A stretch of 64,000 nucleotides of DNA from Escherichia coli. Its GTDB lineage: Bacteria > Pseudomonadota > Gammaproteobacteria > Enterobacterales > Enterobacteriaceae. Within the stretch, counting starts at the first letter, position 1. Each line of letters begins with the position of its first letter. A program made the position numbers. Below are positions 36,001 through 64,000 of this stretch, piece after piece. Location of the stretch: NCBI RefSeq assembly GCF_050920415.1, contig NZ_CP169309.1; one strand, written 5' to 3'.

Positions 36001-39000
36001 TCGCGCCGGACATTTTGTGCCTCGGTAAAGCCTTAACCGGCGGTACGATGACCCTTTCCGCCACGCTCACTACACGCGAGGTTGCGGAAACCATCAGTAA
36101 CGGTGAAGCTGGCTGCTTTATGCATGGGCCTACTTTTATGGGCAATCCACTGGCCTGCGCGGCAGCAAACGCCAGCCTGGCCATTATCGAATCTGGCGAC
36201 TGGCAGCAGCAGGTAGCGACTATTGAAGTACAGCTGCGCGAGCAACTCACACCCGCACGTGACGCCGAAATGGTTGCCGATGTGCGCGTACTGGGGGCAA
36301 TCGGCGTGGTCGAAACCACTCATCCGGTGAATATGGCGGCGCTGCAAAAATTCTTTGTCGAACAGGGTGTCTGGATCCGGCCTTTTGGCAAACTGATTTA
36401 CCTGATGCCGCCCTATATTATTCTCCCGCAACAGTTGCAACGTCTGACCGCAGCGGTTAACCGCGCGGTACAGGATGAAACATTTTTTTGCCAATAACGG
36501 GAAGTCAACGTGAGGGTTTCTGGCTACACTTTCTGCAAAAAAGAAAGGAGGTTTCATGAAACTCATCAGTAATGATCTGCGCGATGGCGATAAATTGCCG
36601 CATCGTCATGTCTTTAACGGCATGGGTTACGATGGCGATAATATTTCGCCGCATCTGGCATGGGATGATGTTCCTGCGGGAACGAAAAGTTTTGTCGTCA
36701 CCTGCTACGACCCGGATGCGCCAACCGGCTCCGGCTGGTGGCACTGGGTAGTTGTTAACTTACCCGCTGATACCCGCGTATTGCCGCAGGGGTTTGGCTC
36801 TGGTCTGGTGGCAATCCCTGATGGCGTGCTCCAGACACGTACCGATTTTGGTAAAGCCGGATACGGTGGCGCAGCGCCGCCGAAAGGCGAAACCCATCGC
36901 TACATCTTTACCGTTCACGCGCTGGATGTAGAACGTATTGATGTCGATGAAGGAGCCAGCGGCGCGATGGTCGGGTTTAACGTTCATTTCCACTCTCTGG
37001 CAAGCGCCTCGATTACTGCGATGTTTAGTTAATCACTCTGCCAGATGGCGCTATGCCATCTGGTATCACTTAAAGGTATTAAAAACAACTTTTTGTCTTT
37101 TTACCTTCCCGTTTCGCTCAAGTTAGTATAAAAAAGCTGAACGCGAAACATTAAAAACCATTAATATCAATGCGTTACAATATCTTTAGTCTAAAAAATA
37201 GACTACATGATGCTACAAAACACAACATATCCAGTCACTATGAATCAACTACTTAGATAGTATTAGTGACCTGAGACAGAGCATTAGCGCAAGGTGATTT
37301 TTGTCTTCTTGCGCTAATTTTTTGTCAACGCACTGGGTTAGTTGAATTTACAACCATGCTCAGTTTGGTGATCTCTTTAGGTCGATTGTTATGGTTATGC
37401 TCTGCTTGATTCAGTGATTTTGGAATCCTGCATTTTAGTAATCATACCCATAATTTTATGCCTAAGCTTTTCCATTGGGTTTTCGATTAGATAAAAACTT
37501 ACCGCCCCAACTAAGATTGATGCTACCATCGTTGCTATATACATATAGAAACTGATTCCTACGTACCACACACCCATTGCTAGAATCAGGAAGTGCCATA
37601 GGTATATAGAGAAGCTCCATTTACCAATGTAAGACATTAACGGTGTTGACAGAGCCCAAGCAAATACACCTTCTCCATAGCTCATTAGCAGAACAATGAG
37701 TCCAAATATTGGCGCATAGAAAATAAATTTGTTGAGAACCCATCCATCAGTAAACCCACCAGTTAACTTCCACATAACTTTAGGCAGTGCAATAAGCATT
37801 GATACAATAAAGAACAGGAAGGCTATATCAGACAACTCTTGACCAATTTTAAGGAAATTATCGTGATAGAGAAATGCTGCAATCATTCCGCAAGCAAACA
37901 GTGGGAAATACCACATCACCATTCCGCCATACGCACTATCCATCGCAGGGTACAATCCCTGTAGCAATACAGCCAGTGCGAAAATAAGGAATGCCGCTGC
38001 TTTTCCATTGTACACTTTTTGAATTGCGACACCAGCATACGCAAAGAATGGAAGTATGAAGTAGAATTTATACTCAATTGGTATTGTCCAGAAATGAAGC
38101 ACGGCCTCTTTCATCGTTATGATTGAGATTGCCGTATTCAAATCAAAATACCCAAAATATGAATACACGAGAACAGCTATTGCGAACACCGGAAGGATTC
38201 TCATTGTTCTTCCAAGGAAATAACTTAAAAGAGACCGCCAGGAAAATCCGGTAGAAATAAATCTACTGGTTAGCAAAAATGCGCTGAGAACAAAGAATAT
38301 CCAAACACCAAACTGTGAACTTCCACCAAGCATAACCTCATACTCATGAAAATATATTCCTGTAGCGTGGGCTATTATTACAAGGAATACCGCTATTGCC
38401 CTTAGTCCATCAAGAGACTTGATTTTACCTTTCATTTCTTTCCCAGATATGGAGTGAACATCTGCGAAAATGTAGCACATTTCAAGGTAAACAAGAAGCG
38501 CATCCATGCGCATTTTCATCACCCTGCCTTGGTGTATGTCCAGTTAAATGTTGTTGTTCCCTGGCTTGTGATGGTTACAATCCTTCCTGTCACTGTAAAT
38601 GATATCAACCCTCCTGACTTAAGCGGAGTTAAAGTAAGTGTTGTTCCGTCCCACATGGCAAGCTGAAGCGAAGAGAAATTTGTTCCACTGCTTTCTGCCC
38701 AAACGCTTATCAGGTACATCCCTTGGCTATTTGGCAGTTCAAACAACGTAGTTGCTACGTTAGCTGCAACAGCCTGAGTTCCTTTCGCTGTGTACACTGC
38801 TGGCAACTGATTACCTGCAGAGCTTCGTGATTCAACATATGAGCCTGAAGTTTGCGTCCCAGTTAATGAGCAGTCAGTAAATACTCCATTCCCTGTGCTG
38901 TAAGTTGATATTACAGGAGTCCCACCAGTCGGAGCCTTAAACCGGCATCCCTCAGCAATTATTTTTGCTGTTGAGTCTGTCAGCAATGTGTTTGGGTATC

Positions 39001-63000: not shown

Positions 63001-64000
63001 CTTCTCTCCATCAATGGTGATCATCCCCTCTTTCACAAAAACCTGAAGCATCCGCTCAACCTGATCACGGCTTGCCGGCTTGCCATGCCTGTCGCATAAC
63101 TGAAGACCTAAATCAGCTGCTGTCACAACCAGTTGACCGGGTTGCAGATGCCATTCATGACCTTTGAAATTCGCTTTGTATGGCTTTCTGGCGGCATTCA
63201 GGAGAAGGTTTTCCCACAGGGTGCGAAGATAAACATCTTTCGCCCATGACTGTTTCAGAATGCTCCGGTACAACGGAATGTAACCAGTTTTCTGGTTCTC
63301 CATCCTGTTGCTCCTGCGCTCGTGTGCGGCGCTGAAATCGTAGATTTTTGCTGTATTGCTCATAACTACCTGCCTTGACGAAAGACCTTAAGAACATCGT
63401 TAAACTGACTTACGGATATGTCTTCTTTGAGAAGCTTTTCCAGAAATGCGTTTGGAATGAACGTATATCCCTCCTCTTTTGGTAGAGACGGGAGCAACGC
63501 CCTCGCCTCAGCCTTCAGAAGCTCAGTTCTGGCAACTTTCACAAAAGAGATTTGAGTTCTTTCATCAATGGAACGAAGGAAGCGCAAACGCTTAGCTTCT
63601 TTGTGTGTATCAGGTGGATTAAAGCCTTTGTTTCGCATATAATTACCTCGTTGGATGTTGTTAAAATTCCATTTGTATTTGATCAGAACGCTCGGTTGCC
63701 GCCGGGCGTTTTTTATTGGTGAGAATCGAAGCAACTTGTCGTGCCAATCGAGCCATGTCGTCGTCAACGACGCCCCATTCAAGAACAGCAAGCAGCATTG
63801 AGAACTTTGGAATCCAATCCCTCTTCCACCTGCTGATCTGCGACTTATCAACTCCCACAGCTTCCGCTGTCTTCTCAGTTCCAAGCATTGCGATTTTGTT
63901 AAGCAACGCACTCTCGATTCTTAGAGCCTCGTTGCGTTTGTTTGCACGAACCATATGTAAGTATTTCCTTAACAAATAAGAAGTTATGCGCATCAACTTA

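Follow-up and report, generated by a model that had tools for sequence, protein, structure and literature searches.

The window that we analysed is a 64,000-nt stretch of an Escherichia coli genome (contig NZ_CP169309.1, assembly GCF_050920415.1). Its host DNA, with bioA and bioB immediately upstream (the gal-bio interval), runs up to ybhB (36556-37032), and 90 bp past the end of ybhB lies the core of the lambda attachment site. The phage genes beyond it (37138-64000) run collinearly from attR to a point shortly upstream of cII. The features are listed below.

37033-37122, no strand: host ybhB-side flank (B' arm), the same as in the empty-site strain MFDS1022581
37123-37137, minus strand: 15-bp lambda att core (O) of attR, a single exact match with the host/phage breakpoint at 37137
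37138-37364, minus strand: lambda-type P arm with P1, P2 and the sib/tI hairpin, 86.6% to lambda 27534-27742
37395-38522, minus strand: acyltransferase-3 family gene, a putative O-antigen O-acetyltransferase moron (phrog_3333, phrog_6705)
38519-40438, minus strand: tailspike, P22/Sf6-type head-binding N-terminus and receptor-binding domain (phrog_8649)
40527-40820, plus strand: Mnt-like Arc-family repressor, 49% to P22 Mnt and 60% to Gally Mnt, matching Arc-like families
40910-42907, minus strand: gp16 homologue, ejection protein, 98.6% to the Gally injection protein and 36% to P22 gp16
42907-44295, minus strand: gp20 homologue, ejection protein, 69% to P22 gp20
44305-44996, minus strand: gp7 homologue, ejection protein, frameshifted (two reading frames against IME10, Gally and P22)
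44999-45457, minus strand: gp14 homologue, 91% to P22 gp14
45454-46302, minus strand: tail needle, gp26-like N-terminus and Sf6-type C-terminal knob (3rwn match)
46302-47720, minus strand: gp10 homologue, 92% to P22 gp10
47720-48220, minus strand: gp4 homologue, 60% to P22 gp4
48503-49798, minus strand: coat protein (gp5), 73% to P22 coat protein
49798-50709, minus strand: scaffolding protein (gp8), 85% to P22 gp8
50723-52889, minus strand: portal (gp1), frameshifted, with IME10 portal aa 1-564 and 559-721 in separate frames
52890-54387, minus strand: terminase large subunit TerL (gp2), frameshifted twice (three frames against P22 and against IME10)
54365-54853, minus strand: terminase small subunit TerS (gp3), 100% aa and 99% nt identity to P22 gp3
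56024-56461, minus strand: Rz i-spanin with the Rz1 ORF embedded, 92% to P22 gp15 and 57% to lambda Rz
56458-56933, minus strand: lambda-type endolysin R, frameshifted, with lambda R aa 1-46 and 48-158 in separate frames
56917-57240, minus strand: lambda-type holin S, 99% aa identity to lambda S
57674-58297, minus strand: late antiterminator Q, lambda allele, 99.5% aa to lambda Q and 96.7% nt including the downstream PR' region
58294-60987, minus strand: nin region (NinH, RusA, DUF1364, KilAC antirepressor, NinF, NinX, NinE, NinB), from homology and the annotation of relatives
61043-62419, minus strand: DnaB-type replicative helicase of the P22 gp12 type, 89.5% to P22 gp12
62416-63363, minus strand: replication initiator (O/gp18-like), 98.7% to Gally O and 58% to the P22 gp18 C-terminus
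63366-63638, minus strand: 90-aa ORF between cII and O, homologue of a Gally hypothetical protein
63640-63712, plus strand: oop-like antisense element, its terminator hairpin (63685-63712) and 3' part identical to lambda oop
63661-63954, minus strand: cII, lambda allele, 97 aa, 96.7% nt and 95% aa identity to lambda cII

The window has a single copy of the core, GCTTTTTTATACTAA, at 37123-37137 (minus strand), against 0.01 matches expected by chance. Window positions 1-37137 are 99.995% identical, without a gap, to E. coli MFDS1022581. Top matches of just 95-96% to the bioA-ybhB DNA had pointed to a host other than E. coli, a reading rejected in view of the MFDS1022581 match. In MFDS1022581 attB is empty, with ybhC straight after ybhB and the core, and the identity breaks off exactly at 37137, the final base of the core. 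Judged from this isogenic empty site, the insertion lies between ybhB and ybhC, at attB-lambda, and the prophage is in the attR configuration with a clean P-O-B' junction.

The likeness to lambda continues for 190 bp directly past the core: window 37119-37327, which takes in the core and the P arm, aligns with lambda 27742-27534 at 86.6% over 209 bp. The Int arm-type site P1 (CAGTCACTAT, 37232-37241) is an exact match, P2 (about 37264-37272) is conserved with one mismatch adjoining it, and the sib/tI hairpin (37281-37318) is conserved relative to lambda. An earlier note on this DNA had described an exact lambda core and a lambda-like P arm abutting ybhB, and core, arm and empty-site breakpoint all bear this out. 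A lambda-type P arm is present at ybhB in some 35% of the complete E. coli genomes, and attB-lambda is occupied in roughly 1,900 E. coli genomes.

A lambda-type Int and Xis would have inserted the prophage into lambda attB between ybhB and ybhC. We found no second att core or integrase within 37138-64000; given the conserved Int arm sites and a complete relative in strain G3/10, the int, xis and immunity genes and attL would be expected about 12 kb past the end of the window. The same note had the window ending inside the immunity region, but its last base lies 46 bp upstream of the cII start codon, so that cro and the repressor fall outside it.

The virion genes TerS, TerL, portal, scaffold, coat, gp4, gp10, gp26, gp14, gp7, gp20 and gp16 follow one another in that order on the minus strand (40910-54853), and then comes the tailspike (38519-40438). 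All 13 virion proteins are homologous to those of P22, at 36-100% aa identity, and the top DNA matches are Lederbergvirus records. The P22 gene order claimed for this block, from TerS to the tailspike with the Mnt-like gene between gp16 and the tailspike, was confirmed gene by gene; neither arc nor ant was found beside the Mnt-like gene. Calling the virion P22/Sf6-type holds for the P22 order and homology and for the Sf6-type needle knob, but the head, portal and terminase are of the P22 subtype. In the tail needle, the Sf6 knob (3rwn) was matched over aa 130-282 (6.7e-89) and P22 gp26 over aa 1-137. The tailspike matched both Sf6 gp14 (8.7e-73) and the P22 tailspike, each match being confined to aa 1-166.

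Between the tailspike and att, as in Sf6 Oac-like morons, lies the gene for an acyltransferase-3 family membrane protein. The protein matched an O-acetyltransferase family (phrog_3333, 1e-37) and an O-antigen acetylase family (phrog_6705, 1e-20), and the gene is 99.5% identical in DNA to genes for an 'acyltransferase family protein' in other E. coli. Its place next to attR is that of the O-antigen conversion genes in Sf6 and P22; in Sf6, the O-antigen acetylase gene (oac) sits between tailspike and att. From family membership and position alone, we infer a putative role in O-antigen modification, which could shut out superinfecting phages that depend on the same receptor. Together, the acyltransferase and the tailspike could mark an O-antigen variant.

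The lambdoid late-control and lysis cassette is present, with Q followed by holin, endolysin and Rz/Rz1, although R is frameshifted. The Rz1 lipoprotein ORF (56077-56262) lies inside Rz and has a VSAC lipobox and a proline-rich tail. Amino acid identity to lambda is 98.7% for NinB, 79% for NinE, 85% for NinF, 56% for NinH and 98% for R. The lambda-like gene set proposed earlier therefore stands for cII, NinB/E/F/H, Q and S (56-99.5% aa) and, in a frameshifted copy, for R, but Rz is mostly P22-type. The replication genes are also P22-type (gp12 helicase; gp18 C-terminus), and the 12-nt repeats within the initiator gene (62825-62936) are probably the origin iterons. The claim of a lambda-like oop survives for the 3' part and terminator; the 5' third and the promoter region diverge from lambda, and we found no consensus promoter beyond an isolated TATAAT. 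Rfam searches returned no oop, nut or other family, either across 36000-64000 at gathering thresholds or across 55000-64000 at E<=1. A 181-aa ORF overlapping cII (63366-63911) was dropped as a gene candidate, as annotated homologues exist for its 90-aa C-terminal part only.

We are confident that one temperate lambdoid prophage of the P22-like (Lederbergvirus-type) kind sits at lambda attB and that 37123-64000 covers its attR-proximal two thirds, about 27 kb of a length inferred to be 39 kb; this confidence applies to the prophage's identity and architecture and not to its defectiveness. Core, P arm, gene homology and empty site uphold the earlier proposal of one mosaic prophage with lambda-type modules and a P22-type virion. 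The best DNA match does change sharply along the region, as it would if a lambda-like prophage or remnant (att, Q, S, R, cII) stood beside an independent P22-like element. However, lambda and P22 segments are interleaved at the scale of genes (lambda P arm, P22 virion, lambda lysis genes and Q, mixed nin, P22 replication, lambda cII), within a single lambdoid gene order that has no internal att, integrase or duplicated function, and the isolated phages Gally and IME10 are interleaved alike. Because the region is collinear with Gally, IME10 and the two-core G3/10 prophage, the lambda-like and P22-like blocks are best read as one element, and we give two adjacent elements almost no credence. P22-like coliphages normally combine lambda-type control with a P22 virion, and such a combination is no special hybrid.

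A truncated remnant would also show one core and no integrase in the window. The left part (immunity, recombination, int/xis, attL) would then have been deleted or rearranged, leaving an attR-anchored fragment, and the frameshifts described below, if real, would mean that selection for lytic growth is gone. Yet the visible 27 kb is free of deletions and collinear with complete phages, the window simply stops at cII, and the G3/10 relative is complete. We consider a remnant improbable and retain the single prophage that continues past the window.

The sole unusual feature of this prophage is a set of five single-base frameshifts in essential late genes, which were missed in the earlier reading. 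Each was placed by comparison with 2-3 independent relatives: two 1-nt deletions in TerL (53471 and about 53971), a 1-nt insertion in portal (51199), and 1-nt deletions in gp7 (near 44866) and in endolysin R (56796). Programmed frameshifting was considered for TerL and portal and rejected, since every close relative encodes them in one frame and each indel is a plain 1-nt difference. If the frameshifts are real, the prophage is defective and, to judge from its reading frames as sequenced, cannot form infectious particles or lyse the cell efficiently. Their presence in TerL, portal, gp7 and R points to a prophage that is either recently inactivated or mis-assembled, and real recent mutations and assembly errors appear roughly evenly balanced. 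By exact-sequence look-up, the exact frameshifted portal product and the exact O protein are in no public assembly.

Window-specific substitutions comprise 94 synonymous and 21 non-synonymous changes, a pattern that matches functional relatives and shows no hint of long-term decay. This strong purifying selection would suit an intact, inducible prophage whose five frameshifts are sequencing or assembly errors. So would the protein segments flanking each frameshift, which are 97-100% identical to relatives, and the rest of the prophage, which is free of large deletions, IS insertions and nonsense codons. Five indels against few extra non-synonymous changes is, moreover, an odd ratio under neutral decay. 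One possible source of error is polishing with mis-mapped reads that came from further lambdoid or P22-like prophages of this genome. On the other hand, the 37 kb of host sequence next to the prophage aligns to a RefSeq genome without indels and includes no gene flagged as a pseudogene, none of the five indels is in a long homopolymer, and at a uniform error rate all five would fall in the prophage with p of about (27/64)^5 = 0.013. We give such errors close to an even chance, which bears on the 'defective' part alone.

Were the frameshifts real and recent, several independent hits would have struck the late genes (packaging, portal, ejection, lysis) of a prophage functional until recently, with the early genes, tailspike and O-acetyltransferase left intact. 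This would fit a selected 'taming' that kept the surface-modifying moron, a reading that we regard as tentative and rather unlikely. A freshly inactivated prophage of this kind would be a small case of prophage domestication. Erroneous frameshifts would instead flag an assembly-quality problem limited to the prophage, and an intact pac-type prophage at the lambda site would move the adjacent bio-uvrB-moa side of the chromosome by lateral transduction.

Beyond annotation, the locus has little importance. The lambda attachment site is used by P22-type podoviruses as well as lambda-like siphoviruses, as already documented, and the architecture is not new: the G3/10 prophage and phiHS3 precede it. 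In E. coli G3/10 (NZ_CP060075.1, 3372524-3411343), a complete P22-like prophage occupies attB-lambda between two cores 38.8 kb apart, with Int and Xis identical to those of lambda at 353/356 and 71/72 positions. It shares the ybhB/ybhC site, core and gene order with our prophage, is 99% identical to it in the P arm over the junction, and is 96-97.5% identical in DNA across the ejection/needle/gp10 block and much of the early region. It differs in its tailspike receptor domain, in its acyltransferase (another one, in opposite orientation) and in its head/portal/terminase subtype (no DNA match across 48236-54934), and all its genes are intact. The temperate P22-like coliphage phiHS3 was shown experimentally to integrate upstream of ybhC, has an O-antigen-related gene at its conversion locus, and is inducible with lateral transduction (bioRxiv 10.64898/2026.05.19.726188). 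By description it is like our prophage in being P22-like and in its ybhC-side site and conversion-locus gene, but the terminase here is frameshifted.

Within the prophage, the best match in RefSeq complete E. coli genomes reaches 97.4%, and no database record is contiguous over 36000-40000. Over 37100-62000, DNA similarity is 83% over 57% for P22 and 96% over 66% for IME10, figures to be read against a genus level of about 70% over the full length and a window holding about two thirds of the genome. Phage Gally (LF82 prophage, OV696608) is 97-98% identical in DNA in ejection, lysis, Q, nin, replication and cII; it shares lambda-allele S, R and Q and a conserved outer P arm (arm-type sites, sib hairpin), but has different head genes, tailspike and core region, and an att with no neighbouring moron. 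Its 357-aa Int suggested an attB-lambda phage, which we rejected, as the core differs and Gally integrates between torT and torS, like HK022 (PMC9928086). Phage IME10 (NC_019501) is 96% identical in DNA across 40098-60981 and shares the coat, portal and terminase subtype, but has an IntS-type integrase (cps-53-like) and intact portal, TerL, gp7 and R; in the IME10-related ISHS7 prophage, IntS adjoins tRNA-Arg.

P22 itself shares the virion gene order, TerS (100% aa), the N-terminal half of TerL (93-99.5% nt), the other virion proteins (36-92% aa) and the gp12 helicase (89.5%). Unlike our prophage, it has a full immI with arc and ant, a needle lacking the knob and another tailspike receptor domain, and the P22 record has an SfV/DLP12-like integrase with the gtrA/gtrB conversion genes adjoining. 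Lambda shares the exact att core, the P arm (86.6%), cII, NinB, Q, S and R (95-99.5% aa) and an identical oop terminator, but is a siphovirus, and its head/tail genes and O/P replication genes are absent here, where the virion genes are podovirus-type. Sf6, which integrates at a tRNA gene, provides the best solved-structure matches, by sequence, for the needle knob (3rwn) and the tailspike head-binding domain, whereas the head, portal and terminase here belong to the P22 subtype.

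In the 64-kb window, the exact 15-bp lambda core GCTTTTTTATACTAA has a single copy (37123-37137, - strand; chance expectation 0.01), 90 bp beyond the end of ybhB (36556-37032), which follows bioB and bioA (35097-36497). Positions 1-37137 match E. coli MFDS1022581 (NZ_CP169399.1), a strain with near-identical host DNA, with 2 mismatches and 0 gaps in 37,137 bp. This match breaks off exactly at the final core base, and in MFDS1022581 the core is directly followed by ybhC, an empty attB, so the insertion point is resolved to the base pair. Directly after the core, 37138-37327 aligns with the lambda P arm (lambda 27534-27742) at 86.6% and keeps the sib/tI hairpin as well as both Int arm-type sites, P1 and P2. 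With the exact core before it, this arm makes the junction a P-O-B' attR, bearing out the earlier note, which had placed a lambda-like P arm and core beside ybhB. The same ybhB-core-P-arm junction is present in 1,919 of 5,426 complete E. coli genomes; attB-lambda is thus filled by a prophage or remnant in about one third of strains, and its filling in E. coli is commonplace.

Three stretches of the host DNA also drew our attention. A 670-aa gene at 3498-5510, annotated as a 'type III effector' in the identical RefSeq strain, lies in an island of 34% GC, with dinG on one side and rhlE on the other. Between ybhN and ybhL, a group of small genes with low GC (about 41%) at 17003-19100 includes those for a SUKH-4 family immunity protein and a DUF3969 protein and looks like an orphan toxin-immunity islet. 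The island at 24326-28759 between yvcK and uvrB (30-34% GC; 765-aa pentapeptide-repeat and 550-aa hypothetical proteins) was probably acquired horizontally and is possibly effector-like.

We compared translated ORFs with P22, lambda and the P22-like LF82 prophage Gally, and searched the window with reference proteins. All major ORFs between 37395 and 63954 lie on the - strand, with the sole exception of the Mnt-like gene.

Gene order of the prophage from attR inward (- strand unless stated)
Adjoining attR: acyltransferase, with PHROG O-acetyltransferase / O-antigen acetylase matches
Inward of it: tailspike, N-terminus of the P22/Sf6 head-binding type (Sf6 gp14, 8.7e-73)
Inward of the tailspike, not on the - strand: Mnt-like Arc-family regulator
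Ejection/tail block: gp16, gp20, gp7, gp14
Needle: gp26-like N-terminus and Sf6-type knob (match to 3rwn, 6.7e-89)
Head/packaging block: gp10, gp4, coat, scaffold, portal, TerL, TerS
Between TerS and the lysis genes: two small ORFs
Lysis block: Rz (Rz1 embedded), R, S
Late control: Q
nin region: NinH, RusA, DUF1364, KilAC antirepressor, NinF, NinX, NinE, NinB
Replication block: P22 gp12-type DnaB helicase and O/gp18-like initiator with 12-nt repeats
Right end: 90-aa ORF, then cII

Both approaches confirmed the P22 gene order of the morphogenesis block. The tailspike receptor domain had no close solved-structure relative in a structure-sequence search, and neither arc nor ant lies beside the Mnt-like gene. 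In a small ORF that separates the coat and gp4 genes, the hexanucleotide TCTGGC is repeated perfectly 7.7 times (48268-48313) and codes for an (EP)n tract; its copies number 8 in Enterobacteria phage IME10 (NC_019501) and 4 in the related ISHS7 prophage. A 100-aa ORF (55714-56016) between Rz and the DUF2560 gene, upstream of TerS in a typical moron position, matches PHROG 34701 (3e-55), but lambda, P22 and Gally all lack a homologue. The 12-nt direct repeats at 62825-62936, which code a repetitive AH(D/E)SAH-type segment of the O/gp18-like gene, are probably origin iterons.

The earlier note placed the window's end inside the immunity region; in fact its last base lies 46 bp upstream of the start codon of cII, before cro and the repressor are reached. 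E. coli G3/10 (NZ_CP060075.1) carries a complete collinear P22-like prophage in exactly the same site, 96-97.5% identical in DNA to much of the window's prophage, with two exact cores 38.8 kb apart, Int and Xis identical to lambda at 353/356 and 71/72 residues, and ybhC past attL. Given this relative, the kept arm sites and the exact core, lambda-type int and xis most likely lie about 12 kb past the window end here too.

DNA identity to lambda is 92.8% for the segment of S, R and the Rz 5' end, 96.7% for Q and the region downstream, 97.5% for ninB and 96.7% for cII, and it extends to parts of ninF and ninE. Among the proteins, Q (99.5%), S (99%), NinB (98.7%) and cII (95%) are lambda-like as first described; R is too in its DNA, but is frameshifted at 56796. 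The claim of a lambda-like Rz/Rz1 holds for the DNA of the Rz 5' end, but Rz, with Rz1 embedded in it, is chiefly P22-type. The oop-like element shares its terminator and 3' part identically with lambda, but its 5' third diverges and no consensus promoter was detected; an Rfam search gave no match. Over most of its length the virion block shows 67-80% nucleotide identity to P22. At 53428-54859, in TerS and the TerL N-terminal half, the value against Salmonella P22 rises to 93-99.5% (TerS 100% aa), which indicates that the pac-recognition module was recently exchanged between genera. In TerL, the mosaic boundary (about 53430-53470) adjoins one of the frameshifts.

The reading that the two kinds of segment belong to separate elements is rejected: they interleave within a single functional lambdoid gene order, the window prophage has no internal att and no duplicated function, and the isolated phages Gally and IME10 are collinear with the same interleaving.

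Absent from the earlier note are five single-base indels that frameshift late genes or gene parts, each relative to 2-3 independent close relatives.

Frameshifting indels (- strand genes)
About 44866: gp7, -1
51199: portal, +1
53471: TerL, -1
About 53971: TerL, -1
56796: endolysin R, -1

None of the five lies at a long homopolymer, and all remaining prophage genes are as long as their homologues. Window-specific codon changes number 94 synonymous to 21 non-synonymous, similar to Gally, a functional phage (84:14), IME10 (45:14), G3/10 (85:11) and ISHS7 (96:15), and protein either side of each frameshift is 97-100% identical to relatives. Both results speak against real decay, and purifying selection must have acted on the prophage until very recently. 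Very recent inactivation through several hits and local assembly errors are about equally probable. Errors at a uniform rate are unlikely (p about 0.013), as the 37 kb of adjoining host sequence is free of indels and none of its genes is flagged as a pseudogene. Whether these frameshifts are real is the sole point deserving follow-up.

The mosaic itself is confirmed as an observation and its interpretation supported, yet the finding is ordinary. P22 is itself lambdoid, and its annotation names lambda homologues of c1, ninB to ninH, gene 23 (Q) and gene 13 (S). Gally shares the lambda alleles in its lysis, Q and cII segments, and integrates at an HK022-type site between torT and torS (PMC9928086). 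In its 20020-20340 region, compared with window 37090-37400, the outer P arm is still of lambda type (P1, P2, sib hairpin) and the core region differs, in agreement with the published site. For the temperate P22-like coliphage phiHS3, integration upstream of ybhC has been shown experimentally (bioRxiv 10.64898/2026.05.19.726188). The cassette of outer P arm, acyltransferase, tailspike and Mnt (37192-42691) is 97.8-99.5% identical to blocks in several other E. coli, including YZLc1-3, and its acyltransferase and tailspike part reaches 99.5%. In those genomes its neighbours are a HEPN-domain gene and another tyrosine recombinase, of 401 aa, which shows that the cassette passes from one integration module to another. 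For every part of the architecture a precedent is on record, and all that sets this window apart is one further combination of known modules.
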